A stretch of 64,000 nt of DNA from Deltaproteobacteria bacterium CSP1-8 (GTDB lineage Bacteria > Desulfobacterota > Deferrimicrobia > Deferrimicrobiales > Deferrimicrobiaceae): assembly GCA_001443455.1 (NCBI GenBank), contig LDXO01000001.1:3102-67101 (forward strand). Reading direction: 5' to 3'. Position 1 is the stretch's first letter, and every line of letters starts with the position of its first letter. A model generated the notes under the pieces. That model was not told the origin of the DNA. It did not search any database and saw nothing but the letters and a program-made list of their open reading frames with translations. The position numbers and the translations under genes were made by a program. Below are positions 5,894 to 63,593 of the stretch, piece after piece.

Positions 5894-5895
5894 CA

Positions 5896-8284: not shown

Positions 8285-8328
8285 AGGAGAAATCCTACCG
8301 CGTCGGGGACCCCGGAGGAAGACCTACT

Positions 8329-11392: not shown

Positions 11393-11549
11393 GAAGGCTC
11401 GGATTTCCCCCCGGGGAAGGAAATTTCGTCTTGATTCTTGGCCTTTGTTGCGTTATGTATACAGTCGACAAAACTGGTCATGGGTTGCATAAAGGGAACC
11501 GGCATTGAACCCTCCTCCAACCAATCATAGCGAAAGGAAGGGAGCGACC

Positions 11550-14854: not shown

Positions 14855-14859
14855 CCCCG

Positions 14860-15555
14860 ATGAGCGAAGAATCCCGCAACCCGGTGTACGTGGAGCGCAT
14901 GTCGGTGCTGTTTCGCATGCAGCACATGCTGTTGATCATCTCCCTCCTGGTCCTTGCCGTGACCGGTTTCGCGCTGATGTACCACGAGAACCGGCTGGCG
15001 CAGGCCCTGATCAGCCTGGAAGGCGGGGTGCTGTACCGTGGGATCATCCACCGCGTCGCCGCCGTGTTCCTGATGGCCCAGCTGGTCTACCACGCCTTCT
15101 ACATGCTTTTTTCCCGCGAGGGGAAACGGGAGCTCAACGAGGTCTGGCTCTCGCGGCGGGATTTCGACGACTTTCTCCAGGCGATGCGGTACAACCTGCG
15201 GATGGGCAACGAATACCCGCGGTTCGGGAAATACGGGTACAAGGAGAAGTTCCAGTACTGGGGGGCCACGACCGGCGTCTTCCTCATCTCCGTGACCGGG
15301 GTCATCCTCTGGGCGGAGACCTTCTCGATGAGGTTCCTCCCCAAGTTCGTCCTGGACCTGACCCTGATCATCCACGGGTACCAGGGGCTGCTCATTTTCG
15401 TCGTCCTTCTGTTCTGGCACCTCTACATCGTCCACCTGCACCCGTCCGTATTCCCGATGAACATGGCGTGGCTTACGGGCAAGGTGGACGCCGAGTGGCT
15501 CCGGGAGGAGCACCCGCTCGAATATGAAAAACTCAAAGGAGAAGGGATCCTATGA
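14860..15555 (+). CDS. FdnI/HydC-like dihaem cytochrome b (membrane partner of the 13598..14854 product)
   Basis: 231 aa. 4 TM helices with conserved His ('RMQHML', 'YHAFYML', 'IIHGY', 'WHLYIVH'). C-terminal 'EHPLEYE' motif shared with the other two b units. Starts 6 nt after the upstream stop. Confidence 0.75.
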   Translation: MSEESRNPVYVERMSVLFRMQHMLLIISLLVLAVTGFALMYHENRLAQALISLEGGVLYRGIIHRVAAVFLMAQLVYHAFYMLFSREGKRELNEVWLSRRDFDDFLQAMRYNLRMGNEYPRFGKYGYKEKFQYWGATTGVFLISVTGVILWAETFSMRFLPKFVLDLTLIIHGYQGLLIFVVLLFWHLYIVHLHPSVFPMNMAWLTGKVDAEWLREEHPLEYEKLKGEGIL

Positions 15556-16616
15556 GGGGGAAGTTCCTCGCAGCGATGATCGTCATCGCCCTGGGGGTCG
15601 GAGCCCGGGGATTTTTCTCCCCCGCGGACGCCAGGGTTTCGCTCGAAAAGTGCACCCTCTGCCACGGAAAGCCCGAGTTCCGGAAGATCCTCGTCGACGG
15701 GAAGATCCGGGACCTGTTGGCGACGGGGGAGACCCTGAAGGGATCCGTTCACGAGAAGAAGACGTGCGTGGACTGCCATTTCGACGTGAGCGAGATTCCC
15801 CACCGCCAGCGCCCCAAGCGCGTGGTCTGCACCCACTGCCACTACAAGGGAAACGCCGAAGGGGCCCCGCAGTCGGACGCCTACCTGGAGTATTTCGGGT
15901 CGGTCCACGGCACGGCGATCGCCCGGGGGAACACGAAGGCCCCCTTATGCCAGGATTGCCACGGAAGCCACGCCATCCGCAAGGCGAAGGACCCGGCGTC
16001 GGCGGTGGCCCGCCGGGGCGTCGCAGAGACCTGCGGACGCTGCCACATCGAGATCTACGCCCAGTACAAGACCTCGATCCACGGCGTGGCGCTGTCCAAG
16101 CAGATCACGGAGGCCCCGTCATGCACCGGGTGCCACGGGGAGCACAAGATCTACGGGCACAAGGATCCGAAGTCCACCGTATTCGCGACCCACGTCGCGG
16201 AGCAGTGCTCGACGTGCCACGCCTCGGTCGCGATCATGAGCAAGTTCGGCATCGACTCCGAGCAGGTGACGACGTACCAGAACTCGTTCCACGGCGTGGC
16301 GAGCAAATTCGGCTCCCGGACCGTGGCCAACTGCGCCTCCTGCCACGGGATCCACGACATCCGCCCGCCGGAGGACCCGCTCTCGATGGTCAACCCGAAG
16401 AACGTTCCCGCCACCTGCGGGAAATGCCACCCGGGAGCGAACCCCAACTTCGCCGTGGGGAAGATGCACGTCGACTCCCACAAGAAGGAGTCCGGGGTCA
16501 TCTATTACACCGCTCTGTTCTTCAAATACCTCACGATCGGCACCATGCTCGCCCTCATCGCGCACATCTTCCTCGACATGTACGGGCGGTCAAAACGATT
16601 GCGCGGGGAGCGATAG
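15552..16616 (+). CDS. Periplasmic 9-heme cytochrome c with C-terminal TM anchor (third c-type paralog)
   Basis: ATGA start/stop overlap. Signal peptide 'FLAAMIVIALGVGARG'. 9 CxxCH motifs (CTLCH, CVDCH, CTHCH, CQDCH, CGRCH, CTGCH, CSTCH, CASCH, CGKCH). TM anchor 'LFFKYLTIGTMLALIAHIF'. Confidence 0.8.
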   Translation: MRGKFLAAMIVIALGVGARGFFSPADARVSLEKCTLCHGKPEFRKILVDGKIRDLLATGETLKGSVHEKKTCVDCHFDVSEIPHRQRPKRVVCTHCHYKGNAEGAPQSDAYLEYFGSVHGTAIARGNTKAPLCQDCHGSHAIRKAKDPASAVARRGVAETCGRCHIEIYAQYKTSIHGVALSKQITEAPSCTGCHGEHKIYGHKDPKSTVFATHVAEQCSTCHASVAIMSKFGIDSEQVTTYQNSFHGVASKFGSRTVANCASCHGIHDIRPPEDPLSMVNPKNVPATCGKCHPGANPNFAVGKMHVDSHKKESGVIYYTALFFKYLTIGTMLALIAHIFLDMYGRSKRLRGER

Positions 16617-16670
16617 AAGAGTCGCCGCCGATGCCTCTTGGACGAAAACCGGTAGCGGGGGAGTGAACGA

Positions 16671-17612
16671 ATGTCCGTGGACGAGAAGAAGAATTCGAAG
16701 AGGGAAACCCTGGAACAGGAGATCGAGGCCGCCGTAGCCGAGGGGACCGCCGACCTCGAGCCCTCCGAGGCGGAGAAGATCCGGGAGAAGGTCCGCGCCC
16801 GCGTCCTCGAGGAAGTGGAACGGGAGAGACGCATCCGCACGGCTGCGGAACGCAGGGCGGAGGAGCGCAGACGCCGCGAGGAGAAGCGGCGGGAGAAGCA
16901 CCCCGAGGAAGGGGAGATGTTCCAGCGGTTCAACCGGAACTTCCGTTTTCAGCACATCGTGATGTTCACCTCGGTCATCCTCCTGATCATCACCGGGATG
17001 CCGATCAAGTTCCCCGACTTCGTCCTGTCCCGGTTCCTGGTGAACCTGTGGGGCGGGTTCCACAACTCCACGATCGTGCACCGGATCGGCGCGGGCATGC
17101 TCATCTACTTCATGGTGCACCACCTCTTCTACACGGTGCTCTCCCGGCAGGGGCGGCGCGATTTCGTGCTCCTGATCCCCACCCCCAAGGACGCGAGGGA
17201 CCTGGTGCAGAACATCCGGCATTTCCTGGGGAAGGTCCCGGAGAAACCGAGGTTCGGCCGGTTCAGCTACATCGAGAAATTCGACTACTGGGCCGTCTAC
17301 TGGGGATGCGTCATCATGATCGGCTCGGGGCTCTTCCTCTGGGGGGAATCGATCGCCCTCAAGTATTTCCCCAAGTACATCCTGGACGTCGCCCACGAGA
17401 TGCACAGCGACGAGGCGATGCTGGCCACGCTGGCCATCGTCATCTGGCACTTCTACAACGTCCACTTCAACCCGGACCGGTTCCCCGGGACGCTGATGTG
17501 GTGGCACGGGGAGATCTCGGAGCATGAGATGAAGGAGGAGCACCCGCTCGAATACGAGGAGATGATGGCGAAGCGTTCCAAGCAGGAGGCGGCGGAGGTG
17601 ACCAACCGATGA
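16671..17612 (+). CDS. FdnI/HydC-like dihaem cytochrome b with an ~85-aa Glu/Arg-rich coiled-coil N-terminal extension
   Basis: 313 aa. N-terminus 'EERRRREEKRREKHPEEGE' is a low-complexity ER-rich stretch. It is followed by 4 TM helices with conserved His and a C-terminal 'EHPLEYEEMM' motif. Confidence 0.75.
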   Translation: MSVDEKKNSKRETLEQEIEAAVAEGTADLEPSEAEKIREKVRARVLEEVERERRIRTAAERRAEERRRREEKRREKHPEEGEMFQRFNRNFRFQHIVMFTSVILLIITGMPIKFPDFVLSRFLVNLWGGFHNSTIVHRIGAGMLIYFMVHHLFYTVLSRQGRRDFVLLIPTPKDARDLVQNIRHFLGKVPEKPRFGRFSYIEKFDYWAVYWGCVIMIGSGLFLWGESIALKYFPKYILDVAHEMHSDEAMLATLAIVIWHFYNVHFNPDRFPGTLMWWHGEISEHEMKEEHPLEYEEMMAKRSKQEAAEVTNR

Positions 17613-19642
17613 AAGAGATGTTCCTCTCCTGGTGGGACCTGGTCGTCAAGCATCGGAAGCCGCTCCTGACGGTCGGGGCGGTGGTGCTGGGGATCCTGAT
17701 CGTCATCAACGGGGCCTTCTTCGTTTCCGCCTACTTCCCCAAGTCGTGCGTCGTTTGCCATTACATGGACCCGTACTACGACCAGTGGAAGACGTCCAAG
17801 CACGCAAACGTCTCCTGCATCAAGTGCCATTCCTTCTCCCCGGTGTTCATCACGGTGACGACGCTGAAATACTGGACCGGGCTGTATCACCCGAGGCCGC
17901 ACGCCAATGTTCCCGACCGGCTGTGCCTGTCCTCCGGCTGCCACGAGGGGCGCATCGAGAAGGGGAAGGCCAAGCTGGGCAGCATCACCTTCGACCACCA
18001 GGAACACATGACGAAGCTCAAGCGCGGGGAGAAGCTGCGCTGCACGTCGTGCCACTATTCGATCGTCCAGGGAGAGCACGTCGCGGTCGACACGAACATC
18101 TGCTTCCTGTGCCACTTCAAGGGGATCAGCCAGGGGCAGGCCCTCGGCGGATGCCCGGGGTGCCACGGCACGCCCACCCGGACCGTGGACCACTCCGGCT
18201 TCCGGTTCTCCCACGAGTCCTACCTGAAGATCGGGGTGCAGTGCAAGCAGTGCCACATCCGCGTGGCGGAGGGGGACGGCCGGGTCGACGACTCCCGGTG
18301 CTACGACTGCCACGTGGGCAGGCTGGACAGGAAGACCGACCCGCTCGCCCTCCACAGGATCCACGTCACCATCAACGCGATCAAGTGCCTGAAATGCCAC
18401 GAGAAGATCCGGCACGGCGAGGTCGAGATGGTCAAGACCTTCGAGGTCCAGTGCGACGCCTGCCACAAGCGGCTCCACAACTACCAGAAGGAGATGTACA
18501 TGGGGGCCGGCGCGAGCGGCGTCCCGGACACCCCGTCGAGGATGTTCTCGGCCCAGGTGTCCTGCGACGGGTGCCACACGAAGTCCGTGGAGGTGCGCGA
18601 GTCCGGCGTCTCCTTCCCCGGCGAGAAGAAGCTCACGGCCGAGCGGAACAGCTGCGTCGCCTGCCACGGGAAGAACTACGACCGGATGCTCGACGACTGG
18701 ATCCACGCGTCCCGCATCCTCGCCGCCGACATGGGGGCGATCGTCGCCTCCGGGGAGGCGGCCGTCGGGACCGGCCCCGCGAAATCGAAGAAAGTCGGGG
18801 AGGCCCGCGCGCTGGTGGCGGATGCCCGCTCCAATCTCAACCTCCTGAAAGCCGGGCGCGGAGCCCACAACATCGAGTACGCCTACAAGATCGTGAAGGC
18901 GGGCTACGAACAGGTCTCCGCGGCGTACAAGGCCGCTGGCGTCCCCGGCGGGCCTCCCCGGCCGCCCATCCTCGCGAGCCCGTCCGCCTATTGCATGACC
19001 CTGTGCCACCAGCGGGTCAGGCCTCCGGAGAAGCTCTTCTTCCGGGAGATGGAGGTGAGCTTCCCGCACACGCTCCACGTCAAGGACGTGGGGATCCAGT
19101 GCGCCAAGTGCCACTCCCCGGACAAGCACAAGATGCGGATCGTCACCAAGTCCGAGTGCATGGCGTGCCATCACGAGTCCCGGGACATCGACTGCGGGCA
19201 GTGCCACAAGCCCCACAAGGCGCTCTACGAGGGGAAGGTGAAACCCGCCGGCGTTTCCCCGGTCCCCGACGTGATGGCCGAGGCGGGCCTGAAATGCGTC
19301 GACTGCCACGAGCTGAAAAAGGGGGCGCAGACGGTCCTCACCGTGAAGTCCAAGTGCGAGGAGTGCCACAGCGCCAAGTACGGGAAGATGCTCCTCTCCT
19401 GGAAGGAGGAGATCACCGCGAAGGAGAATGCCATCTCGGTGTCGCTCGAGGAGGCGAGGGAATACCTGGAGCGCAGCAGAAAGATCGGGAAGAACGTCGA
19501 TGAGGACATGAAGCTTTTCCAGGGGGCCGAGACGAACTATCAGATCGTCAGCAACGGGCGGGGGACCCACAATTACGCCTTGAGCCGGGATCTCCTGAAA
19601 TCGGCGCAGAGTTCCCTGGACAGGATCCTGAAGAAGAAGTGA
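17609..19642 (+). CDS. NapC/NirT-like membrane-anchored 18-heme cytochrome c
   Basis: ATGA overlap with the upstream gene. N-terminal TM 'LLTVGAVVLGILIVINGAFFV', then 16 canonical CxxCH motifs plus a variant CX4CH ('CLSSGCH') and CX3CH ('CMTLCH'). The NapC/NirT-type first motifs are 'CVVCH...CIKCH'. Confidence 0.8.
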   Translation: MKEMFLSWWDLVVKHRKPLLTVGAVVLGILIVINGAFFVSAYFPKSCVVCHYMDPYYDQWKTSKHANVSCIKCHSFSPVFITVTTLKYWTGLYHPRPHANVPDRLCLSSGCHEGRIEKGKAKLGSITFDHQEHMTKLKRGEKLRCTSCHYSIVQGEHVAVDTNICFLCHFKGISQGQALGGCPGCHGTPTRTVDHSGFRFSHESYLKIGVQCKQCHIRVAEGDGRVDDSRCYDCHVGRLDRKTDPLALHRIHVTINAIKCLKCHEKIRHGEVEMVKTFEVQCDACHKRLHNYQKEMYMGAGASGVPDTPSRMFSAQVSCDGCHTKSVEVRESGVSFPGEKKLTAERNSCVACHGKNYDRMLDDWIHASRILAADMGAIVASGEAAVGTGPAKSKKVGEARALVADARSNLNLLKAGRGAHNIEYAYKIVKAGYEQVSAAYKAAGVPGGPPRPPILASPSAYCMTLCHQRVRPPEKLFFREMEVSFPHTLHVKDVGIQCAKCHSPDKHKMRIVTKSECMACHHESRDIDCGQCHKPHKALYEGKVKPAGVSPVPDVMAEAGLKCVDCHELKKGAQTVLTVKSKCEECHSAKYGKMLLSWKEEITAKENAISVSLEEAREYLERSRKIGKNVDEDMKLFQGAETNYQIVSNGRGTHNYALSRDLLKSAQSSLDRILKKK

Positions 19643-19652
19643 CCGGGAAACC

Positions 19653-19666
19653 ATAACCCCCGGGGG
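19653..19666. terminator. Perfect 14-bp GC palindrome AACCCCCGGGGGTT between the two convergent cytochrome operons (candidate bidirectional terminator)
   Basis: Sits in the 48-bp gap between the stops at 19642 (+) and 19691 (-). There is no good U-tract, so it could equally be a protein-binding site. Confidence 0.3.
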
Positions 19667-19690
19667 TTGCCGTTCGTCCCGTACGGGGGG

Positions 19691-21289
19691 CTACCGCTTC
19701 CCGCCTTGCCCCGCCTCTCCGTCTTCCGCTTTCCTGCCTCCTTTCCCGGCCCCACTGCCGGAGAACGCCGAAAGAGCCGTTTCGGCGTCCACCCGCGCCT
19801 TTCCGAGCACCTCGGTGGCGTACTCCACGTTGTGAATCCCCTTCCCGTAGAGGATGAAGAGGTAGTTGTACTCGGCGTCCCGTGCCTGCGCAACGGCCTT
19901 CCGGTTCTCCATGCGGGAGGCGTCGGCGGATCGAAGCAGGTCACGGGCCTTCTCCACGACGGGCTTCGTCTTGGCGAGAGCGCTTTTTACCTCCTCCCGC
20001 CAGCTCCCCATCACCCCCTTGTAGTCCTGGCCGTGGCACCCGAGGCAGGCGGCCTCGGAGGCCTGGAACGTCTGGCCGAGGAACGCCACCGTGGATTCCG
20101 CCGTTTTCGGCACGAGGTGACACCCGACGCAGTCCACGTTGGCCACGAACATCGGGCTTGGCCTGTTGGGGACTCCCCGGGCGCCGATCCCCATGTAGAT
20201 CTGCTTCTGGATGTTGTGCTTCTTCTCGTGGCAGACCGTGCAGTCGTATTGCAGGGGCTCGACCGTCGTCTTGACCGCGTGCCGGATCTCCTCGTGGCAG
20301 TGCGTGCACTCGATCTTGTGGTCGGTCACGTGGTTCCTGTGCATGAAGTCGGTGTCGGCGTAGCGAGCGAGCCGGGACGGCTCGTTGTGGCACTGGAGGC
20401 AACGGTCCTTCTTCGCCTCCCCTTCCCCCTGGATCGCCTCGAGATGGCAGTTCTGGCACGCCACGTGGCGCGTTCCCACGAACTCCTTGTGGTTGAAGCT
20501 CGCGTTCCCTACCTTGATGTCCCCTTCCGGGGCGGCGTGGCAGTTTCCGCATCCCCCGATCGGGTTCTCGACGCGCCCGATCTTGGTTCCCTTGAAGTGA
20601 CACAGGAAGCAGGTGCTCTCGGTGACTTCCATGTGGTTCCCCACGACGATCTGGCTGTGACAACTCGTGCACCGGAGCTTCTTCCCTCGCTTGAGGTCCA
20701 CCAGGTGCGGCCGGTGGTCGAACTTGATCCCGCGCTTGAACGTGACCTGTCCCTGGAGGAGCCGGGTTTCGTGGCATCCCATCCGCAGGCAGGAGGCGTC
20801 GTCGATCTCGGCGTACGGCTTGGAGCTGTAGGTGCGGGTAACGTACTTGGCGACCTGCGAGAGCGCCTGGAATTTCAGAATCAGTTTCTCCCGCACCTCC
20901 GGCGGGTAATGACAGTCCACGCACGGCACGTGGTTGTGGCTGGAGGTCTTCCACGCCTGGTAATACGGCTTCATGATGTGGCAGCTGGCGCAAAAGTACG
21001 GGCTGGTCGAGAACTCGAACATCCCCGCGGAGAAGATGAGGAAAAGAACGCCGAGGAATCCGAGGAACTTGAAGAACCGGGGCTTAAGGTGGAGCCTGTC
21101 CTCCTTACCCTCGGGGATGTGCATCCCGAACTTTTCCATGACCCGCTTCTTGCGGGTTTTCTCATGGCTGGCGGGAGCCCCGGACCCTTTCTGCGGTTCG
21201 TCCATGGCCTGTCCCTTCCTTGCCGGGAATCGTTCCTGCAACCAGCATGCAAAGTCGGTATTGTATCCGCGGCACCCCGCGGAGTTCAA
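19691..21289 (-). CDS. NapC/NirT-like membrane-anchored 12-heme cytochrome c (inverted paralog of the N-terminal two-thirds of 17609..19642)
   Basis: Start overlaps the upstream stop as ATGA. TM 'FLGFLGVLFLIFSAGMF'. 11 CxxCH motifs plus the variant 'CLRMGCH'. Clear paralogy, e.g. 'LRCTSCHSQIVVGNHMEVTESTCFLCHFKG' vs 'LRCTSCHYSIVQGEHVAVDTNICFLCHFKG'. Confidence 0.8.
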   Translation of the reverse strand: MNSAGCRGYNTDFACWLQERFPARKGQAMDEPQKGSGAPASHEKTRKKRVMEKFGMHIPEGKEDRLHLKPRFFKFLGFLGVLFLIFSAGMFEFSTSPYFCASCHIMKPYYQAWKTSSHNHVPCVDCHYPPEVREKLILKFQALSQVAKYVTRTYSSKPYAEIDDASCLRMGCHETRLLQGQVTFKRGIKFDHRPHLVDLKRGKKLRCTSCHSQIVVGNHMEVTESTCFLCHFKGTKIGRVENPIGGCGNCHAAPEGDIKVGNASFNHKEFVGTRHVACQNCHLEAIQGEGEAKKDRCLQCHNEPSRLARYADTDFMHRNHVTDHKIECTHCHEEIRHAVKTTVEPLQYDCTVCHEKKHNIQKQIYMGIGARGVPNRPSPMFVANVDCVGCHLVPKTAESTVAFLGQTFQASEAACLGCHGQDYKGVMGSWREEVKSALAKTKPVVEKARDLLRSADASRMENRKAVAQARDAEYNYLFILYGKGIHNVEYATEVLGKARVDAETALSAFSGSGAGKGGRKAEDGEAGQGGKR

Positions 21290-22560
21290 CCTGTATTCAC
21301 GTCTCCCGCGCGGGGGTGTTTCGGGAGGAGGGCGAGCTTGACTCCCAGCAGGGCGGCGATCAGGAGGAGCATCGTCACGGAATACACGGCCACCGATCTG
21401 CGCTGGCGCTGTTCGTCCCGGAAGTTCCCGATCTCCTGCCGGGCCTCCCGGAGGAAGGAGTCGGACTCGTGGATCAGGGGGAGAACGCGGTCGAGGGAGA
21501 AGGTGTGGAACACCGGCTCGACCTCGGTCAGCCTGTTGCGGGCGTTTTCATGGGCCTCCTTCAGCTTGTCCACGTTCCGGCCGGCCGCCGTCGCCGCGTC
21601 GAGTTCCTTCTGGTATTCCGCGACTCCTTCCTCCAGCGCCCCCAGCAGATCACGGACGTTTTCGGCGAACTGGAGCGGCTTGCTCCCCTTTTCGTGGCAG
21701 AATCCGCATTCCCCCGGCCCCGACCCCGAAAAGACCCTGATGGTCGGTCTGCGGTTGGAGTGGTTCCCGTGGCAGGTGATGCACTTCGGCTCCCCGATTT
21801 CCCGGGCCGCGGCGAAGTGGGCGCTTTCCCGGAAGTATCCGGCCACGACGGCGTGGCAGCCTCCGCATACGTTGGCGACCTCCCCGACCCCCGGGGGCGC
21901 GGCGCCGTGCACCCCGTGGCAGGTGGCGCAGTTGGGGGCGAGAGTCGGGTTCTCCCGCCGGATTTTCCCGGCCAGGATCCGGCCGTGGATCCCGTTCTCG
22001 AAGTTCTCCCGCTGGTCCGTGGGGATGCCGTACGGCTTCATGTAGGCCGGGTCCGCGTGGCATGCTCCGCACATCCGGGGGACGTTCGTGCGGTAGACGG
22101 TCGACTCCGGGTCCGACTTCCGGCGGATCTCGTGCCGGCCGTGACAGGAGGTGCATACGGCGACCCGGGTGTCGTCCCTCTCGTACAGGAGCCTGCCGTG
22201 CCGGCTCGTCCGGTACTCGGCGAGCTGGTCGGTCCGCAGGTTGTACTGCCGCATCATGGCGACGTCCGAATGGCAGCGGGCGCAAAACCGGGGGATGTCC
22301 CGGGTCGCCGGTTTCCCGCGGAATCCGTACCGGCGGTCCATCCCCTCCTCGGTGGGCAAGGACGGATTGCCGCCGTGGCACGTCACGCAGGCAACCCCCG
22401 CCTCGCGGTGCACGCTCCCGATGTGCTCCTTGGCCGGCGCGCCGAGCTTCCCCCCGAGCCGGTTGTGGCAGGCGAAGCACTGGTCGACCTTTTCCTGGAC
22501 GGCGGCGGCGGGGGAGGCGAACAGGGTTGCGAAAAGGGCGAGCGCGGCCGCACCGGCCAT
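21286..22560 (-). CDS. Periplasmic 9-heme cytochrome c with C-terminal TM anchor
   Basis: True start 'MAGAAALALFATLFASPAAA' (ATG 22560, signal peptide). The long N-terminal extension in the ORF track was rejected. 9 CxxCH motifs (CFACH, CVTCH, CARCH, CTSCH, CGACH, CATCH, CGGCH, CITCH, CGFCH). C-terminal TM 'VAVYSVTMLLLIAALLGV'. Confidence 0.75.
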   Translation of the reverse strand: MAGAAALALFATLFASPAAAVQEKVDQCFACHNRLGGKLGAPAKEHIGSVHREAGVACVTCHGGNPSLPTEEGMDRRYGFRGKPATRDIPRFCARCHSDVAMMRQYNLRTDQLAEYRTSRHGRLLYERDDTRVAVCTSCHGRHEIRRKSDPESTVYRTNVPRMCGACHADPAYMKPYGIPTDQRENFENGIHGRILAGKIRRENPTLAPNCATCHGVHGAAPPGVGEVANVCGGCHAVVAGYFRESAHFAAAREIGEPKCITCHGNHSNRRPTIRVFSGSGPGECGFCHEKGSKPLQFAENVRDLLGALEEGVAEYQKELDAATAAGRNVDKLKEAHENARNRLTEVEPVFHTFSLDRVLPLIHESDSFLREARQEIGNFRDEQRQRRSVAVYSVTMLLLIAALLGVKLALLPKHPRAGDVNTG

Positions 22561-23820: not shown

Positions 23821-24312
23821 CTAGTGCACCGTCTCGCAAATCCCTTGGCATTCGATCGCCGCTGCAGGGGGCCGGTCCCCGGAAGGGTTTCGTCGCGAGA
23901 CAAGGGAGACCCGAGGCGAGGCGGGCAAGCGCAGGAGCGAGTGCGGAGGCGTACGGTCAGTACGCCGCACAAGCGAGCGACGAGCACGCCCGACGCAGCC
24001 CGGGGATCGCTTGTCGCAGCAGAAAAGGCAGCCCTGTTGGCGACCGGCGCCTGCGGCGAGGGAACGCACCGCCAGACCTTTGTCGGACTCCCTGCGCCCG
24101 GCTCGGCGTACCGCCAGTACGCCTGCGCCGTGCTCGGTCGTCCTTCGCGGTCTGACGGCGCATCCGCTTCGCCTCGGCTGCCGACCCTTCCGGGGACAGG
24201 CCCCTCGCTCCCGCTTCGTTGCGCTTCTTCACCATACTCAACGGTATGCCTCAGTCGCGCGCCTTGCTGGCGCGGCGCATCGACGCTCTCGGTGCGTCAA
24301 GCTATTTACGAG
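23821..24312. repeat. ~490-bp MITE-like element bounded by inverted terminal repeats of the T motif
   Basis: Left end 'GTGCACCGTCTCGCAAATCCC', right end 'CTATTTACGAGACGGTGCAC'. Internal inverted repeats 'gcgtacggtcagtacgcc' / 'ggcgtaccgccagtacgcc'. The interior is shared with 3961-4190 (opposite orientation). Confidence 0.65.
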
Positions 24313-26506
24313 ACGGTGCACCAGGGCGGCATTTCGACGGGCTTTCCCCTTCGGTGCCAGAAATGAAAAACTCGTGCACCGTGGGGGAACCGGTCACGTC
24401 CCATGTCCCCTTGACCCGGTTCGTCCCCTCCGAGAAGACCAGGTAACTGTATTTCCCGTAATGGGGGATCTTGCGGGCCGCCATCGCGGCGGCCTCCGGC
24501 GACAGGGGCAGGAAGAGGGCCGCGACCCGGTCCTTGTCCGACGGGTGGGGCAGGACGACGAAGAGGGAGTCTTCCCGCGAGCCGTATTCCGTCCCCCCGA
24601 TCACGAACCCCTTCGGGGACACCGAGAGTTCCCGGGGCAGGGCGGGCAGATACTTCTTCCCTCCCGGCAGGCCCAGGTAGAGCACGTCGCGTCCGGCCAG
24701 CCGGGAAGGGGGCGTATCCTCTTCCCGGAGGATCCCGATCTTCTCCTTCCCCATGGCGGCGAGGAGGACGTTCGAGGCCTCCAATATGTCGGCGGGGAGA
24801 CCGCGCGCGGCCACGACCAGGAGGTCCGCCGATCCCCGGATCCCATTGACGGAAGGGGGGATCTCGGTTGCGTCGAGTCGGCGGAACAGATCCACGTCGG
24901 GGTCGACGATCAAGCGAAGGGGGCGGGACGCAGACGCCATGGCGAAACGGGCCTCCTTCCCGGAAACTTTTATCATGGTATCTGTTTTTCCGTCTTCGGC
25001 GATGAGGCGAAGGGGAACGCTCAGGGTGTAGTACGGCTTTTCCTGCGTGACTTTTCCGGACACCCGCCACCCCTTCCCCGCCCGGTCCGCCCTGACCCCT
25101 TTGAGGGCGATGACAGGGGCGCCGGGGCGGTCGACCCACTGCCGGAAGAGGGGGGCGAAATCGGTGCCGGAGTTCTTTCCGAGCGCCCGGGCGAAGTCGT
25201 CCCATGACGCTTCCTGGAACATCTTCTCCCGGACCACGTCCTTCAGGCCCTTCCAGAACGCCTCGTCACCGGCCAGACGCCTGGCCATGTGAAAGACCAT
25301 CGCCCCTTTTCCGTACCCGACGGCACTCGACGCGGGGTTGTCCCGTCCAGCGAACGAGGCCAGGGGAAAGTCGCTCCCCAACAGGACGAGGGCACTGTAG
25401 TCCCGCAGGATCTTGAGACGGTACTCCCGCCCTTCCTCGGATGAGGACCTTTCCTTGTACAGGTAGTCGGCGACGTAGGTGGTAAGCCCCTCGGACCAGT
25501 TCCCCCGACCATGGTCGACGTGGACCCCGTTTCCCCACCAGGAGTGCGCCACCTCATGACCCAGGCTGGTGTCGAGGATGAAGGGGAGTCGCACGACGGA
25601 GGATCCGAGCAGCGTGTAGGAGGGAAAGCCGTACCCCGTGGGGAAGAAATTCTCCACCACGGCGAACTTCTCGAACGGGTAGGGCCCGAACAGCTTCCGG
25701 TAAAGGTCGAGATACCTGGCGACCGCCTGGATATATTTTTCCGAAAGCGCGTCGGTCTCCGGATAAAAGTAGGTGAAGATCCTCGTCGCCCCGGAAGATC
25801 CCTCCCGGACCCGGTAGGGGCCCGCCGAGAGGGACAGGCCTTCCAAAGGATCCCGGGTCTCCCATTCCGACCTCGTTTCGCCTCCTGACGTCTCCCGCCG
25901 GACGGGCCTTCCCGCCGCCACCGCCTCGTACCCTGCCGGCCCTTCAACACGCAGTCGGAAGGTCGGTCGGCTCCCGGGGATCTCGGGGTACCAGCCGGCC
26001 CCGCTGCTCAGGAAAGTTCCCTTATTCCGGATGGTCCCCCGGACCCCGTAGCCCGGGTCTTCGCTGTTCACGGGGTCTTCGGGGACCGGATCGTGAAACG
26101 TTCCGAAGTACGAGATGGTCAGGGACCAATCGGCGCTGCCGGCCAGGTCCTGGGGGACGTCGACGCGGACAACTCCCCCGGCGCTTGAGAAAGGGATCTT
26201 CCACCCCCCCGCGGTGACGGAATCCACGGCCGCCCCGGCAGACAAGGAGAAAACAAGGAAGGAATCCCCGGCGGGTCGTATCGTGAGCGTGTCTTTTCCG
26301 GCGAGGGAGTGGTTTTGAGGGTCAAGCCTAACCGTCAGGTCGTGATGCACGACCGCCGGCTGTCCGAATGCCCGTGCCGCCGATAACAGCAGGAGGACCG
26401 CGAGGAGGGAGGCGACGCGACGGAAGGAGGCGGCGCAACCGTTGCCCGCCCGGCACCGGATCGATCTGGCCGGGCCGGCATGTGCCGTCTTCGGGAATCC
26501 CGCCAT
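24302..26506 (-). CDS. M1-family zinc aminopeptidase (secreted)
   Basis: Zinc motif 'GHEVAHSWWGN' with a downstream Glu, and a GAMEN-like region. Start chosen at 'MAGFPKTAHAG' (ATG 26506), upstream of signal peptide 'ASLLAVLLLLSAARAFG'. Confidence 0.7.
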   Translation of the reverse strand: MAGFPKTAHAGPARSIRCRAGNGCAASFRRVASLLAVLLLLSAARAFGQPAVVHHDLTVRLDPQNHSLAGKDTLTIRPAGDSFLVFSLSAGAAVDSVTAGGWKIPFSSAGGVVRVDVPQDLAGSADWSLTISYFGTFHDPVPEDPVNSEDPGYGVRGTIRNKGTFLSSGAGWYPEIPGSRPTFRLRVEGPAGYEAVAAGRPVRRETSGGETRSEWETRDPLEGLSLSAGPYRVREGSSGATRIFTYFYPETDALSEKYIQAVARYLDLYRKLFGPYPFEKFAVVENFFPTGYGFPSYTLLGSSVVRLPFILDTSLGHEVAHSWWGNGVHVDHGRGNWSEGLTTYVADYLYKERSSSEEGREYRLKILRDYSALVLLGSDFPLASFAGRDNPASSAVGYGKGAMVFHMARRLAGDEAFWKGLKDVVREKMFQEASWDDFARALGKNSGTDFAPLFRQWVDRPGAPVIALKGVRADRAGKGWRVSGKVTQEKPYYTLSVPLRLIAEDGKTDTMIKVSGKEARFAMASASRPLRLIVDPDVDLFRRLDATEIPPSVNGIRGSADLLVVAARGLPADILEASNVLLAAMGKEKIGILREEDTPPSRLAGRDVLYLGLPGGKKYLPALPRELSVSPKGFVIGGTEYGSREDSLFVVLPHPSDKDRVAALFLPLSPEAAAMAARKIPHYGKYSYLVFSEGTNRVKGTWDVTGSPTVHEFFISGTEGESPSKCRPGAPSRK

Positions 26507-41323: not shown

Positions 41324-41340
41324 AGCGAGAACGATTGCCC

Positions 41341-42355
41341 GCAGAGGGGTATCCACTTTACTCCAGTACCCACAATATGTAGTGTTACTACCCATGGAGG
41401 ACTATCCGAGGACCCTTGCCGAATTCGAGAAACGGTTTGCCACGGAGGCGGCGTGCCGCGCCTACTTGATCCACTGTCGCTGGCCGTCGGGGTTTCGGTG
41501 CTCGCGGTGCGCCACCGACGATGGATGGGAAACCAGCCGGGGCTTGCGGATGTGTCCCCAGTGCGGACACCAGACCTCCGTGACAGCGGGGACGATTTTC
41601 CACCGGAGTCACCTTCCGTTGCGGACCTGGTTCCGGGCCATGTGGTGGGTCACCAACCAAAAGCACGGGGTCAGCGCTCTGGGATTGCAGCGCCTGCTCG
41701 GGTTGGGGAGCTACGAGACAGCTTGGTCCTGTCTCCAAAAACTGAGGCGTGCGATGGTGCGGCCTGACCGGGACCGGCTGGGCGGCGAGGTGGAGGTGGA
41801 TGAAACATACCTTGGCGGCGTCCAGGCTGGTGGAGGCCGTAGACACTTGGGAAACAAGGCCTTGTTGGCCATCGCCGCGCAGGTCGACGGCCAAGGGATC
41901 GGCCGGATTCGGATGCGTCGGATTCCGGATGCCTCCTCCAAGACACTCCTCTCGTTCGTCAAGATGGCGGTCGAACCGGGGGCCGTGGTCGTCACCGACG
42001 GATGGGGTCCTTACGACGGGTTGCAGAAGGAGGGCTTCACGCACAACCCCCGGGTGATCAGCGGGAGCGGAAAAACGGCATCGACTCTTCTGCCGCGGGT
42101 GCATCGGGTCGCGTCTTTGTTGAAACGGTGGCTGTTGGGAACCCATCAGGGTGCTGTATCCCGCAAGCAACTGGAATATTACCTCGACGAGTTTACGTTT
42201 CGGTTCAACCGCAGGACATCCAGGCATCGCGGTAAGCTGTTCACACGGCTTATTGAACAGGCAGTCGCAATTGGACCTACGCCTTACGAAAAACTGATCG
42301 TCGGTCCGGACCACAATATGTAGGGGTCACTGGAGTAAAGTGGATACCCCTCTGC
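41341..42355. mobile_element. IS1595-family insertion sequence with perfect 27-bp terminal inverted repeats
   Basis: Left IR 'GCAGAGGGGTATCCACTTTACTCCAGT' (41341-41367) is the exact reverse complement of the right IR (42329-42355). Subterminal direct repeats 'CCACAATATGTAG' lie at 41370-41382 and 42311-42323. Single transposase ORF inside. Confidence 0.85.
41394..42323 (+). CDS. IS1595-family (ISXO2-like) transposase
   Basis: N-terminal Zn-ribbon 'CRWPSGFRCSRC...CPQCGH', then a DDE domain. The ORF track starts at GTG 41382; ATG 41394 'MEDYPRTLAEF' is preferred. Confidence 0.8.
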   Translation: MEDYPRTLAEFEKRFATEAACRAYLIHCRWPSGFRCSRCATDDGWETSRGLRMCPQCGHQTSVTAGTIFHRSHLPLRTWFRAMWWVTNQKHGVSALGLQRLLGLGSYETAWSCLQKLRRAMVRPDRDRLGGEVEVDETYLGGVQAGGGRRHLGNKALLAIAAQVDGQGIGRIRMRRIPDASSKTLLSFVKMAVEPGAVVVTDGWGPYDGLQKEGFTHNPRVISGSGKTASTLLPRVHRVASLLKRWLLGTHQGAVSRKQLEYYLDEFTFRFNRRTSRHRGKLFTRLIEQAVAIGPTPYEKLIVGPDHNM

Positions 42356-42677
42356 CCGCAAACCGGTGTTCGGTCCGGTCGCGACGTCCCCGCATCCTCC
42401 GGGAAAGGTCGTTCCCGACGGGAAACCGGGTCGCCTCGAGCCAAATCTAAGTAGTTGGGGTGGCGCCCATCCCGGTGTCGTCTAGGCAAGGGACGTCCAA
42501 CCTCCCGGCCGGGGAGACGCCAACCAGGGATGGATACCGGATGCCGGGCGATTCCCGGCGAGGACGCGTCACCCTTTTTCGTCGTCGGGTGACCGAACCG
42601 GGGGTGTTCTCTCTTTCATCGATGGTCAAAAGCATACGGTCGCCGGCGAATTCCGGGTGCACGGAAGCGGCTTCGGG

Positions 42678-52246: not shown

Positions 52247-54376
52247 ATGAATAACATAATTGGGATTCGTTATCACAAATTTAGGATCGTGTTGTTCTGT
52301 TTTCTGGCGATCTTTGCTTTCGCAGCATTTACACCAGGCGCTAATGCATCGTCAGGTTTCTTTGCCGATCCCACTAAGGGGGACTGCAGCAGCTGCCACA
52401 CCGGACAGACGGGGAGCAGTTTCTGCGGGATGTGTCATGCGCACGGGGCGCATCCAAACAACCAGAAATCCAGCGTCAACGTGACGGCTGCAACGAACAA
52501 GTCCGACTATGCACCAGGTGAGACCGTCAGCGTGACGATCAGCGGAGGATACCGGCCCAGCCAGGCGCGTGCAATTTTATACAACCAAAGCATGACGCAG
52601 GTTGCCATCAGCACGGGCACGCCCTCCAGCGGCGGGGGACCGGTGAACGCTCCGGCCTGGACCGGCATGACTGTGAACGGGATTGCTACTTACGGGAGGA
52701 CCCTCAGCGCGCCGGCGCCGACCGCGCCGGGAACTTATACATGGAAGGCCGCCTGGTACGGGAACCTGTACGATAAGAGTGGGGCGGCGTTCGGCGGCGC
52801 GAACTGGGTTCCGGACCCCTCCAATGCCGACCACGGCGAAGAGAGAGCAAGCGTTACCTTCACGGTGACGGCCCCTGCTCCGATTCTGACCAGCATCAGC
52901 GTATCCCCCTCGTCGGCCAGCGTTGCGGCAAACGGGACACAGCAGTTCACGGCGACGGCCAAAGATCAATTTGGCAACGCCCTGGTAACGCAACCCGTCT
53001 TCACCTGGACGGTGAGTGGCGGCGGAACGATCAACGGCAGCGGACTTTTCACTGCCGGGAGCACGGCGGGTGGCCCGTACACGGTGAGGGCAGCGAGCGG
53101 CGTGGTGAGCGGAACGGCCAGCGTGACGGTGACGGCCCCTGCTCCGATTCTGACCAGCATCAGCGTATCCCCCTCGTCGGCCAGCGTTGCGGCAAACGGG
53201 ACACAGCAGTTCACGGCGACGGCCAAAGATCAATTTGGCAACGCCCTGGTAACGCAACCCGTCTTCACCTGGACGGTGAGTGGCGGCGGAACGATCAACG
53301 GCAGCGGACTTTTCACTGCCGGGAGCACGGCGGGTGGCCCGTACACGGTGAGGGCAGCGAGCGGCGTGGTGAGCGGAACGGCCAGCGTGACGGTGACGGA
53401 CGTGCCGGGAGACACGACGGACACGGTGCCTCCGACCGTGATCTCCACCAACCCGCCCGATCTCGCGGTGGATGTCTACGTGAATACCGCGATCGAGGCG
53501 ACCTTCAGCGAACAGATCGACCCGTCTTCCCTGGAATCGGGCAACATCCGGGTCAGGGATCCGGCGAATATCGAAGTGCCGGGCGCGGTGAGTTACAGCG
53601 AAACCAGTAAGACAGCGACGTTTTCCCCGTCCACCCCCCTTGCGTACGGTACCGTATACACCGCCGAGGTCAAGCTCGGGGTGACAGACTTGGCCGGAAA
53701 CAGGATGGCGTCCCTTTACAAGTGGACGTTTACGACCCAGCAGGCGTCGCCCGATTCTGACGGCGACGGCGTGGGGGACGACGACGACGAGTCTCCGCAC
53801 GACTGCCGCAACGCGACGCCAAGGACCCCGAGGGGGAACGGCAAGATCCAGGTCGAGCTGGTAGGAAGCGCCCCCGGGTGCCTGAAAAACGTTAAAACCT
53901 CAACGGAGACGAGTTCCTCCATAACCATGGCGGTGAAACCCGCGGGGTACGAGTTCCCCGACGGGCTGGTGTATTACGAGGTGGAGGGGATTCCTCCCGG
54001 GAGCACGGAAACCGTGCTTCTCACCTATCCGCAGCCCCATTCCGCCGGGTCGAAGGTGTTCAAGGTCGACGCCAGCGGGTTCCAGGAGTTTTCCGGGGGG
54101 TCCATCAGCGGGAAAACCGTCACCCTGATTGTCACGGACGGCGGAGCGGGTGACCTGGACGGGCTGCGCGACGGCGTGATCACCGACCCGGTCGGCGTCG
54201 GGTCTCCCGTTGATCCGGGCGGGAGCATCGATCTGGGAACGAGCGCCTCGGGCGGCGGCTGCTCCGTGGTCGGCGCCGGCGGAGGGTGGAAGGAGGCCGC
54301 AGGGTTTTACGGTCTCATTGCCCTTGCGTGGCTCGGGCTGGCCCTCCGGAGGAGGAGACCGAAGACCGGGAAGTGA
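52247..54376 (+). CDS. Large secreted protein: N-terminal diheme cytochrome c region, two identical Big_2-like Ig domains, an SbsA-Ig-like domain, an Asp-rich Ca-binding-like repeat, and a MYXO-CTERM-like sorting tail
   Basis: Signal peptide 'IVLFCFLAIFAFAAF'. Heme motifs 'CSSCH' and 'CGMCH'. 88-aa Ig-like unit repeated twice. 'DSDGDGVGDDDDE' stretch. C-terminus 'GGGCSVVGAGGGW...GLIALAWLGLALRRRRPKTGK' has a GC motif, a TM helix and an Arg cluster. Lower GC than its surroundings. Confidence 0.65.
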   Translation: MNNIIGIRYHKFRIVLFCFLAIFAFAAFTPGANASSGFFADPTKGDCSSCHTGQTGSSFCGMCHAHGAHPNNQKSSVNVTAATNKSDYAPGETVSVTISGGYRPSQARAILYNQSMTQVAISTGTPSSGGGPVNAPAWTGMTVNGIATYGRTLSAPAPTAPGTYTWKAAWYGNLYDKSGAAFGGANWVPDPSNADHGEERASVTFTVTAPAPILTSISVSPSSASVAANGTQQFTATAKDQFGNALVTQPVFTWTVSGGGTINGSGLFTAGSTAGGPYTVRAASGVVSGTASVTVTAPAPILTSISVSPSSASVAANGTQQFTATAKDQFGNALVTQPVFTWTVSGGGTINGSGLFTAGSTAGGPYTVRAASGVVSGTASVTVTDVPGDTTDTVPPTVISTNPPDLAVDVYVNTAIEATFSEQIDPSSLESGNIRVRDPANIEVPGAVSYSETSKTATFSPSTPLAYGTVYTAEVKLGVTDLAGNRMASLYKWTFTTQQASPDSDGDGVGDDDDESPHDCRNATPRTPRGNGKIQVELVGSAPGCLKNVKTSTETSSSITMAVKPAGYEFPDGLVYYEVEGIPPGSTETVLLTYPQPHSAGSKVFKVDASGFQEFSGGSISGKTVTLIVTDGGAGDLDGLRDGVITDPVGVGSPVDPGGSIDLGTSASGGGCSVVGAGGGWKEAAGFYGLIALAWLGLALRRRRPKTGK
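52871..53398 (+). repeat. Perfect intragenic tandem duplication, 2 x 264 bp (Ig-like domain unit)
   Basis: 52871-53134 and 53135-53398 look identical at nucleotide level. Both encode 'APAPILTSISVSPSSASVAANGTQQF...GTASVTVT'. The antisense ORFs 52735..52962(-) and 52966..53226(-) share the identical prefix 'MAVAVNCCVPFAATLADEGDTLMLVRIGAGAVTV'. Confidence 0.85.
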
Positions 54377-59828: not shown

Positions 59829-60162
59829 CGCGCTCCTCCCGGCTTGCGCAGGGCCTCTCATAGATATTTTCTCACGGTTTGCCACGGGATGTCTTATGCA
59901 CCGGTTGCGGGGTAAAGGGACGTTCGTTTTTGCCGCTTCCGGAAACGGACCGCGGAGGGGTATCATCGTACAGGGCGATGGGGGAGAAGCCACGGGGCGC
60001 GATGCGTTCGCCCCGCGTCCGGGGCCGTCGGCAAGGGAGGGAAACCCCGGGGAAGGGCGATGATAAGATGAAGTCTGAAAACACGCGCGGTCAGGCTAAG
60101 TACTCCGCTTCACAAATATGGCAACGTATCCTTGCATGCCCCCCGTTGCCAAGGGGCGCAGC

Positions 60163-60345
60163 GGGGGATTCCTCGAAGCGGGGGGACATTCCTATATCGA
60201 GTTGTACGTTGAGGAGTGTCCCGCGAAAGGCGAAAATTGCGTCGAGCGGAATGGCAGCGAGCAGTCGCAGGTCGCGAGCGTAGCGGAGAGGAAGCCGCCC
60301 GCGAGCACCTGGCACCGGGAGGGGAAACGCCTCGGGCGTCGGCCC
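60163..60345. repeat. Composite P-G-T copy of the interspersed repeat family
   Basis: P hairpin 'GGGGACATTCCtatatcgagttgtacgttgaGGAGTGTCCC', then the G module 'aattgcgtcgagcgg...gcgagcgtagcggagaggaagcc', then T motif 'gatacgagaccgtaattacgagacgcagcac'. The spurious ORFs here share 'STRYRNVPP' with ORFs at the 5.8-kb copy. Confidence 0.7.
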
Positions 60346-60423
60346 GATACGAGACCGTAATTACGAGACGCAGCACTTAGCGGAACGCATCGTGTTTTCC
60401 ACACACCACGAAAGGGGAACGAG

Positions 60424-61205: not shown

Positions 61206-63224
61206 GTGGAGTACGGATCTCTTGCCTGGCGTTCGATCAACGCCATCCGGTTTCTCTCCGTAGACGCGGTGCAGAAGGCGAAATCCGGTCATCCCGGCAC
61301 TCCCATGGCGCTTGCCCCGCTGTCGTACCTTCTCTGGACGAGAACCCTCCGGTACAACCCGAAGAATCCGGACTGGCCCGGCAGGGACCGGTTCATCCTC
61401 TCCTGCGGGCACGCGTCGATGCTCCTGTACTCCCTGCTGTACCTCACCGGGTTCGACCTTCCCCTCGAGGAGCTCAAGGCGTTCCGCCAGTGGGGGAGCA
61501 AAACGCCGGGGCACCCGGAGGCGGGGCACACGCCAGGGGTCGAGGTAACCACCGGGCCTCTCGGGCAGGGGATCGGAAACGCCGTGGGGATGGCGATGGC
61601 GTCGCGGTTGCTGGCCCACCGGTTCAACCGCCCCGGGCACGAGATCGTGTCCCACCGGATCGTGGCGCTGTGCTCCGACGGGGACCTCATGGAGGGGGTT
61701 GCCTCCGAGGCCGCGTCGCTGGCCGGGTTCCACCGGCTCGGCAACCTCGTCGCCTTCTACGACGACAACCGGATCACGATCGAGGGGTCGACCGACCTGG
61801 CGTTTCGCGAGGACGTCGCCGGCCGGTTTCGCTCCTACGGCTGGAACGTCCTGACGGTCGCCGACGGGAACACCGATCTCGAGGGGACCTCGGCGGCGAT
61901 CGGGGCGGCCTTTGCGGAGAGGGAGCGACCGACGCTCGTGATCGTACGGACGAACATCGCCTTCGGCAGCCCGAACAAGCAGGACACCGCGGAAGCGCAC
62001 GGATCCCCCCTCGGGGAGAAGGAGGTGGCGCTCACGAAGGAGGCGCTCGGCTGGCCGAAGGAGCCGGATTTTTTCGTGCCCGTCGATGTCCTGGCGCACT
62101 TCCGGGAGGCGATTCCCCGAGGGGAGGCGATGGAGCGTGAGTGGCGCCTCAAGATGGCGGCATACATGAGCGCCCATCCGGACCTGGCCATGGAATGGGA
62201 ACGGGTCATGTGGGGGGATCTTCCGGAGGGTTGGGAGAAGGACCTCCCTTCCTTCTCCCCCGGGGCCGGCCCGATGGCGACGCGGAAGGCGTCGGGGAAA
62301 GTGATCAATGCGATCGCCCGGAGGGTCCCCGAGCTTGCGGGGGGGTCGGCCGATCTCGCCCCGTCCACGGAGACGCTGATCGAGGGAGGCGGGGAGTTCC
62401 TCCCGGACGCCTCTCCGGGGGGGAGGAACTTCCACTTCGGCGTGCGCGAGCACGGGATGGGGGCGATCCTCAACGGGATGTCGCGCCACGGGGGGGTGAT
62501 CCCGTACGGGGCCACGTTCCTGATCTTCTCAGACTATATGCGGGCCTCCATTCGCCTGGCGGCGCTTTCGGGTGTCCGGGTGATCTACGTCTTCACCCAC
62601 GATTCCGTGGGGCTCGGCGAGGACGGCCCCACCCACCAGCCGATCGAGCATCTGCCGTCGCTGAGGGCGATCCCGAACCTGTACGTCTTCCGGCCGGCGG
62701 ACGCCAACGAGACGGCAGCGGCGTGGAAGATGGCGATGGAGCGGTCCACGGGACCCTCCGCGATCGCGCTCACCCGGCAGAGCGTCCCGATCCTTCCCCC
62801 GGAGGAGGTGTTCCGCGATGGAAACGTATACCGGGGCGCGTACATCCTCAAAGAAGGGGGGAAGGGCCATCCCGCGGTGATTCTGCTGGCCTCCGGCTCG
62901 GAGGTGCACGTTGCCCTGGGGGCCGCCGAACTCCTGGAGACGGAAGGGATATCCTCGCGGGTGGTGAGCTTCCTTTGCTGGGAACGGTTCGAGGAGCAGC
63001 CCGACCTGTACCGCCAGTCCCTGCTTCCGTCGTCGGTTCGCGCGAGGGTTTCGGTGGAGGCGGCGGCGACCTTCGGGTGGGACCGGTACCTGGGCGGCGG
63101 CGGTGCCTCCGTGGGAATCGACCGATTCGGCGCCTCGGCGCCTGCGGCGCGCATCTTTCAGGAGCTGGGAATCACACCCGAAAACGTCGCGGCCCTGGCG
63201 AAGGCCTTGCTCGGGAAAGCGTAG
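61206..63224 (+). CDS. tkt: Transketolase
   Basis: 672 aa. TPP-binding '[18 protein letters not shown]', transketolase pyrimidine-domain and C-terminal-domain layout. Confidence 0.9.
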
Positions 63225-63264
63225 AGGTGCTGTGCTTTCCGAAATACGGCACTGTGACCCGGGG

Positions 63265-63545
63265 CGCGGCGGGGGATTCCTCGAAGCATGGGCGGGGGCA
63301 CTCCTCTCCCGCATCCCGGTGGGCGGGGACACTCCTCAACGTGTAACTTGAGATAGGAATGTCCCCGGAGGGTCCCCGGGAAATCGCATCGAGCGGGCGC
63401 AGTTTCGCGGGTGCCGAAAAAGCGTAGCAAGCCGAAGGAGTGGGGGCGCAGTGAGGTTAAGCCACGAACGGAGCCCCCCTCCGAGGCTGCGGAGCGATCG
63501 CCGCCCGCGGGCCCCGGGCACGATACGAGGCCGTAACTACGATAC
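63265..63545. repeat. Composite P-G-T copy of the interspersed repeat family (P module inverted relative to the 60.2-kb copy)
   Basis: 'gggggattcctcgaagc' is shared with 60163. 'GGACACTCCtcaacgtgtaacttgagataGGAATGTCCCC' is the reverse complement of the 60181 hairpin. A diverged G module follows, then T motif 'gatacgaggccgtaactacgatacgctgcac'. Confidence 0.65.
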
Positions 63546-63593
63546 GCTGCACTAAGGAACCGGTATCGAATTTTTCCCGGGAAAGGAGCGTGC

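Follow-up and report, generated by a model that had tools for sequence, protein, structure and literature searches.

Nested hairpin repeats in a Deferrimicrobiaceae-like bacterium as probable IS630-type composite MITEs

Introduction

The window analyzed here, a stretch of 64,000 nucleotides from Deltaproteobacteria bacterium CSP1-8, carries at several places hairpin-forming sequences that are assembled from a small set of modules, and the copy at positions 60163-60345 raises the question of what kind of element such a mosaic belongs to. An earlier note, made from the letters alone, had recognized an imperfect hairpin (P), a G+C-rich block (G) and an end segment (T) that recur in different combinations, and had likened the family to REP/BIME elements. 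The reading favored by the analysis that follows is that the repeats are, very probably, non-autonomous DNA transposons (MITEs) of the IS630/Tc1-mariner type. To judge from how the genomes with the same G core are labeled, the family appears to be one of IS630-type composite MITEs in Deferrimicrobiaceae-like bacteria. A nested IS630-type MITE would be a known kind of selfish DNA that is newly seen in an uncultivated sediment bacterium; the nesting is unusually rich, and the nested modules, together with the folding of one strand, are the only features that go beyond a routine MITE description.

The six units of the window

By blastn inside the window the modules are genuine and collinear, with G blocks of 74-89 nt that match at 91-95% identity (E 1e-21 to 1e-33; positions 5717-5805, 8421-8494 and 60234-60322). 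P likewise recurs over 41-43 nt at 88-90% identity (5823-5865, 60180-60222 and 63326-63366), and T over 32-40 nt at 85-91% identity (8540-8571, 24289-24320, 60341-60380 and 63517-63556). An independent repeat search gives the same module pairs, and the P arm GGGGACAYTCC, at one mismatch or fewer, occurs 14 times in the window against 6.1 occurrences expected, a count that none of 100 shuffles reached. When the window was searched with 15 related elements from other contigs, the six sites that had been listed were returned and no more. The description of a dispersed, modular, hairpin-forming family in both orientations was thus sound, as was the advice that its spurious ORFs deserve masking: the shared pseudo-peptides exist, with STRYRNVPP at 5822-5848 and YASVVRLAG at 4060-4086, both on the minus strand, and YASVARLAG at 24245-24271 on the plus strand.

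The locations given to the copies were correct but their boundaries were not, the units being wider. Named after the reading preferred here, they are:

4001-4183, no strand assigned: E5, diverged relative of the basic 161-bp MITE, with different ends (ATGGTCTGTCCCGGAAATAG...)
5708-5895, minus strand: E4, truncated copy with nested P hairpins, the G core and part of the right shell
8327-8572, plus strand: E1, composite MITE of 246 bp with T ends and G core, without P; TA at 8325-8326 and 8573-8574
23824-24321, plus strand: E6, MITE of 498 bp; TA on the left, CA on the right
60099-60377, plus strand: E2, complete composite MITE of 279 bp; TA at 60097-60098 and 60378-60379
63224-63552, plus strand: E3, composite MITE of 329 bp, of the E2 subfamily; TA at 63222-63223 and 63553-63554

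Together such DNA makes up about 1.7 kb (2.7%) of the window. The flagged segment, 60163-60345, is the interior of the longer unit E2, within which the following parts can be distinguished:

60099-60133, plus strand: left terminal inverted repeat, AGTACTCCGCTTCACAAATATGG...
60158-60305, plus strand: G core, with the closing inverted repeat GCAGCGGGGGATTCCTCG / GAGAGGAAGCCGCCCGCGAG around the G block 60235-60305 and with P at the apex
60182-60223, plus strand: P hairpin, GGGGACATTCC, a loop of 20 nt, then GGAGTGTCCCg
60341-60377, plus strand: right terminal inverted repeat, ...ATTACGAGACGCAGCACT, the T module of the earlier note

The G core of E2 is 93% identical to 5717-5805 and 91% identical to 8421-8494 (blastn inside the window). 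T does recur as had been claimed, but it is not a module standing alone; it is one arm of a terminal inverted repeat, and its mirror image lies at the left end of the four units that have such repeats, E1, E2, E3 and E6. TA is found on both sides of E1, E2 and E3.

The remaining units vary on this plan. E3, which was found in all six of the related contigs checked, carries two P hairpins, one nested in the other, at 63294-63377, together with a diverged G, and E4 is without T ends and without the left arm of the core. The interior of E5 is 80-82% identical to the basic 161-bp MITE, and its flanks show no clear TA duplication. E6 consists of the basic 161-bp T-ended MITE (43 + 116 nt, 95-99% identical to L050) and a 339-bp insert at 23867-24205 that has its own inverted repeats at its borders, the whole being 96% identical to L099 across 498 nt. 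Copies like E1, 90-95% identical to it, sit in the unrelated flanks of three other contigs (L013, L015 and L019), each bordered by TA or TG. One of these contigs, L015 (DATHRT010000168.1), is binned as 'Candidatus Limnocylindria'; its right flank is identical to the Deferrimicrobiaceae contig L019 (JBAUKK010000222.1) and its left flank is similar, which suggests faulty binning and not a transfer between phyla.

Ends, target sites and relatives in other contigs

A scan of metagenomes for GTGCASCGTCTCGYAAAT returned at least 120 loci. Among the matches listed, at least 57 distinct elements are complete from end to end, with lengths of 68-498 bp (most often 161-164 bp), and related contigs contain at least 58 pairs of terminal inverted repeats. 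The common end of these elements is GTGCAsCGTCTCGyAAAT. Among the same listed matches, TA stands to the left of 37 of the 57 elements, to the right of 39 and on both sides of 24, so that it is found at 65-68% of ends, against a background dinucleotide frequency of 1.5%; a CTA...TAG context surrounds 17 of the 57. Flanks other than TA are, among these matches, mostly CA, TG, GA or TC, and in a few elements the boundary is probably misplaced by a base or two. IS630-family elements insert at TA within CTAG and duplicate the TA. A clean empty site is seen in an orthologous pair of contigs, in which L126 reads GCGC-TA-GAACC and L147 reads AAC-TA-[element]-TA-GAACC. The size classes, of 68, 161-164, 173, 189, 201, 241, 324 and 493-498 bp, represent one shell with different internal inserts; one-base indels separate copies, and the elements are non-coding.

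The G core was followed separately, with one genome per species, to 20 loci, which sit in metagenome-assembled genomes labeled Candidatus Deferrimicrobiaceae or 'Deltaproteobacteria', many of them at contig ends. In viral contigs the G core is absent, and P is present in two. One of these (L175 1-260; IMG/VR UViG_3300038466_000104) has P and a segment homologous to the interior of E3 (window ~63440-63490) directly upstream of a tRNA gene, near one end of a stretch from a 42.9-kb viral-classed contig; a host origin, next to an integrated prophage, is probable for this DNA. In the literature, the sequences of the ends and of P turned up as chance primer matches only.

Presence and absence of E2 between strains

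An exact look-up of a protein encoded next to E2 led to aquifer-sediment metagenome contigs with 98-99.9% identity to the window. Four of ten such near-identical contigs, from different samples, carry E2, and the other six lack exactly window 60096/7-60379, the flanks of the filled and empty alleles being 99% identical. By the SNPs of these flanks the filled allele is nested within a clade of empty alleles, and gain of E2 is therefore the simpler reading. The empty site reads CAGG-TTGC-GCGG in all six empty contigs, whereas a TA duplication would predict CAGG-C-TA-GCGG; the discrepancy points either to a non-canonical insertion, with four bases replaced, or to a true target allele outside the sampled set. 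Exact-protein look-ups with three other genes flanking the units gave no record. Because E2 is polymorphic between strains whose flanks are 99% identical, the family records that transposons were recently active in this uncultivated lineage of the subsurface, and polymorphism of the E2 type could give a strain marker.

An autonomous relative and the proposed mechanism

An autonomous relative with the same ends is found in L138, an IS630-family insertion sequence of 1128 bp (~1.13 kb) that originates from an unrelated metagenome contig and has an intact transposase gene. Its layout is, in order, TA, GTGCACCGTCTCGCAAATAGGTTGAC..., a 357-aa ORF, ...CTTGAGACGGTGCAC and TAG. The ORF matches Pfam DDE_3 (1.8e-23) and also HTH_29, HTH_23 and HTH_32, N-terminal helix-turn-helix domains that are typical of IS630-family transposases, and it has more than 8000 homologues at E < 1e-30, for some of which the NCBI name is IS630 family transposase. 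It ends in ...ETVH within the right end of the element, where the flanking TA completes the stop codon. The ends of L138 open with the same 12 bases as the MITEs (GTGCACCGTCTC), and the left end agrees with the end of the 161-bp MITE at 25 of 28 bases. In an alignment of element ends, those of E1 and E6 share the common sequence given above with the insertion sequence, and those of E2 also align with IS630 ends, E2 and E3 forming a diverged end subfamily, (A)GTGCTGCGTCTCGTAATTACGG. Copies of the insertion sequence in other contigs (L157-L163) have the same ends and TA flanks. The MITEs, at 68-498 bp, compare with 1128 bp for the parent insertion sequence.

Neither the window nor the Deferrimicrobiaceae loci examined contain an IS630 transposase gene, and a source of transposase presumably lies elsewhere within this organism. 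The sole transposase gene identified in the window is of the IS1595 family:

41335-42361: complete IS1595 insertion sequence of ~1 kb, with 50-nt terminal inverted repeats that are 82% complementary
41382-42323, plus strand: IS1595 transposase ORF of 313 aa, with DDE_Tnp_IS1595 (3.6e-30) and the IS1595 zinc ribbon

This insertion sequence has unrelated ends and was rejected as a parent of the MITEs. So was L077, in which two T ends 1063 bp apart enclose a response-regulator gene and belong to two separate small elements.

Since the terminal repeats match IS630 ends, and since TA targeting is known from the RUP elements discussed below, T is best read as a transposon end and the T-bounded unit as a MITE. 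The T sequences at both ends of a complete unit form a terminal inverted repeat of ~20-35 bp matching the ends of an IS630-family insertion sequence, and an insertion-sequence transposase acting in trans would bind both ends and excise the unit, which would then be pasted into a TA, usually within CTAG, with duplication of the TA. A transposase of the L138 type may be the enzyme that mobilizes the units in trans. G and P are not ends but inner segments with inverted repeats of their own, nested at the center of the outer hairpin, and the variety of modules would most likely have come from nested insertion, from recombination of dispersed copies and from arm-to-arm inversion. The hairpins may also have an effect on host transcripts, such as the mRNA stability or insulation put forward in the earlier note.

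The nested modules

The G core is ~120 nt long, is closed by GCGGGGGGTTCCTC / GAGGAAGCCCCCCGC, and is ~90% identical across the 20 genome loci, although the shells around it are of at least six kinds. From shell to shell the arms beside the core change in sequence but stay complementary (GCGCAC/GTGCGC, GTGCCA/TGGCAC, GGACCC/GGGTCC and GCGGGGT/ACCCCGC), and apart from the closing stem no significant fold was obtained for the core. A comparison of duplex energies between own and foreign arms at the core (-25.4 vs -20.9 kcal/mol, sd 6.7) was set aside as uninformative in such G+C-rich sequence with some false hits. MITEs usually conserve their ends best; here the G core is more conserved than its shells, and G and P are not accounted for by IS630 transposition.

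P is a smaller unit of 42-47 nt, with the arms GGGGACAyTCC and GGArTGTCCCC, and comes in at least four loop families and in both orientations. It is found at the tip of G (E2, L016 and L026), at the center of a plain MITE (the 201-bp class) and inside another P (E3, E4 and L147), and it is present in some and absent from others of the E6-type copies that are otherwise 96-98% identical. Between E2 and E3 the whole of P is flipped relative to G (repeat search). Instead of adding to its site, P swaps out a displaced segment of 16-21 nt, and in 1 Mb of related DNA no lone P was found, the hairpin always lying beside G-type or T-type elements. Other inserts with inverted repeats of their own are the 339-bp insert of E6 and one of ~80 bp in the 241-bp class. 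Neither G nor P is flanked by TA, and no pair of empty and filled sites was found for G.

Rearrangement within elements is also seen. L147, which comes from the same metagenome as L001, a near-identical copy of the window, is collinear with E1 at its ends and has its central 140 nt inverted at 97-100% identity. The differences between L027 and L028 cluster in ~100 nt, as gene conversion would give.

Folding of the elements

E1, E2 and E3 each fold over their full length into a long, imperfect rod; the z-scores range from -2.5 to -4.9, those of E2 being -3.1 for the plus strand and -4.9 for the minus strand. When E2 was folded as single-stranded DNA the score was -1.3, which is not significant. 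The basic family was examined in an alignment (A1) of 41 copies of the 161-164-bp MITE (loci L040-L154); because these copies share ancestry, few independent events lie behind its folding numbers, in which 13 of 59 predicted pairs have compensatory changes, G.T mismatches at predicted pairs outnumber A.C mismatches by 161 cells to 6, and the top strand folds better in all 41 copies, by a mean of 18.6 kcal/mol. Two further shared C.A positions in this alignment fall in symmetric loops. The strand asymmetry of the 161-164-bp family is unexpected under a purely double-stranded model of transposase binding.

Rfam 15 has no match to the whole window at gathering score, and none to E1 and E6 at E up to 1; scans of the elements for promoter-like and terminator-like sites gave none. 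With respect to the upstream gene, 8 copies are sense and 16 antisense, a difference that is not significant and that depends on ORF calling that is rough in 65% G+C DNA.

Alternative explanations

The conserved core in changing shells suggests another way of reading the composites, namely that G, P and similar inner units are mobile elements themselves, which enter or replace the centers of palindromes by a mechanism other than that of IS630. We consider this unlikely. In its favor, the core stays ~90% identical in at least six shells while differing arms remain complementary, P turns up at the tip of G, at the center of the 161-bp MITE, inside another P and in E6-type copies, and the inserts of 339 and ~80 bp are likewise bounded by inverted repeats. 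If it were true, the composites would be parasites of parasites rather than products of recombination. However, no empty and filled pair was found for G, no consistent target duplication at G or P, and no candidate enzyme; P replaces 16-21 nt, the pattern of L027 and L028 resembles gene conversion, and an alignment of the E1 and E2 shells is possible at the ends, which leaves room for a common ancestry of whole elements. Equally doubtful is the proposal that G and P form a second tier of mobile or selected DNA inside the MITEs that moves between unrelated shells. Such units would always land at the center of a host palindrome without TA duplication, for example by hairpin template switching or through an unknown enzyme, or alternatively G and P would be kept for doing something for the shell or the host. 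Were this second tier real, the fact that the 161-164-bp family folds better on one strand would hint at some importance of a single-stranded form.

The folding results bear on the idea that the family is a structured RNA, either a gene or a cis-acting element, whose stems are kept by selection on the RNA fold and whose transposon features are secondary. The rods and their z-scores, the compensatory changes in 13 of 59 pairs among the 41 copies, and the better fold of the top strand in every copy, with G.U-type mismatches shared and A.C-type mismatches at predicted pairs confined to singletons, all speak for it. We nevertheless regard it as very improbable, given the lack of an Rfam match even at E = 1 and of promoter-like or terminator-like sites, the occurrence of the core and P in both orientations within one shell, the placement of copies both sense (8) and antisense (16) to neighboring genes, and presence or absence between strains whose flanks are 99% identical. 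Furthermore, the compensatory changes are few and shared by subfamilies, and templated repair can also make inverted repeats evolve in concert. The identity suggested in the earlier note, that of REP/BIME-type palindromes moved by RAYT, an IS200/IS605-like tyrosine transposase, and assembled into mosaics, has least to recommend it and can be considered highly improbable. REPs are 20-40 bp long, are tagged by GTAG/CGTC and are linked to RAYT tyrosine transposases (PMC3733652). REP/BIME and REPIN sequences can affect mRNA stability. The present family resembles them in consisting of dispersed, mostly intergenic palindromes in mosaics and in both orientations, and P, at 42-47 nt, is near the size of a REP. 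The units are much longer, however, at 180-500 bp, they have TA-flanked terminal inverted repeats, and their ends match those of an IS630-family (DDE) element and not of a RAYT locus. The insertion polymorphism of E2 also speaks against this identity, as does P, which has no GTAG or CGTC tag at either end (PMC3733652) and was never found alone in 1 Mb of related DNA.

Comparison with known elements

Read as IS630-type MITEs, the repeats have counterparts in several other groups. Stowaway-type plant MITEs, which are derived from Tc1/mariner elements, show TA duplication, terminal repeats related to those of Tc1/mariner, hairpins and mutual insertion. The present family is also TA-flanked, hairpin-forming and nested; unlike it, Stowaway elements are eukaryotic and have no sequence relationship to the repeats described here, in which nesting occurs at the exact center of the palindrome and the inner units are without TA.

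Among bacteria, the RUP element of pneumococcus is a TA-targeting MITE that is mobilized by an IS630 relative, IS630-Spn1 (PMC2229807). Shared with RUP are small non-coding units, IS630-like terminal repeats, insertion at TA, many mostly intergenic copies and a trans-acting transposase (PMC2229807), the last of these being proposed in the present case. RUP is, however, a simple unit of 107 bp, whereas the units here contain nested palindromes (G, P and the 339-bp unit), range from 68 to ~500 bp, and belong to an unrelated uncultivated lineage. The Correia or NEMIS elements of Neisseria similarly have terminal inverted repeats, a terminal TA, and long and short forms that differ internally (PMC2229807), their transcripts form long hairpins, and the elements are often co-transcribed with neighboring genes (PMC2229807). 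No transposase is known for Correia elements, whereas an autonomous IS630 relative with the same ends can be named here; furthermore, Correia elements carry an IHF site and promoters, and none were found in the present elements.

Neighboring genes and annotation

It had been stated that every copy lies between genes. This is roughly true, but three units share stop codons or codons with the genes that adjoin them. The last base of E1 and the following TA make up the TAA stop of a ribonucleotide reductase gene, the right end of E6 holds the last 5-6 codons and the stop of an M1-peptidase ORF, and the TAG stop of a transketolase gene consists of TA and the first base of E3. Because the element starts with G and the TA is duplicated, a TAG stop that lies within the CTAG target survives the insertion. 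Junctions that abut a stop in this way are:

window 8572-8574
window 63222-63224
L027 3476-3478
L028 1056-1058

Targeting of stop codons was considered and rejected. Of 60 insertions, 34 have a junction stop (TAG, or TAA for E1) that terminates a long ORF; 31% of ordinary CTAG readings do likewise, which predicts ~53% per site, so that there is no enrichment.

The practical consequences are for annotation and assembly, as MITEs here create false ORFs, supply or abut real stop codons, and interrupt the assembly of metagenomes; in many related contigs the sequence stops within a copy. An E6-type element lies upstream of a cytochrome b gene in three contigs (window 23824-24321, L027 3479-3998 and L028 1057-1620), and on its far side is a Rieske protein gene in L027, an AP-endonuclease gene in L028 and the M1 peptidase gene in the window, which contains no Rieske gene. 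The three junctions stem either from rearrangement by recombination among copies or from assemblies that are chimeric at the repeat, and most other contigs with an E6-type element break inside it.

Several further features of the window were observed in passing. The methionyl-tRNA synthetase gene (4175-5707, minus strand) has a GTG start and an upstream purine-rich stretch that adjoin the shell remnant of E4 (window 5707-5740), and its start region perhaps lies inside that remnant. Positions 11500-22500 hold a cluster of multihaem cytochrome genes with many internal repeats that encode CxxCH, and within it paralogous stretches lie on opposite strands (17979-18128 vs 20584-20733). Finally, a 264-bp tandem duplication of 95% identity, at 52834-53361, falls within a long ORF on the plus strand (52247-54376).
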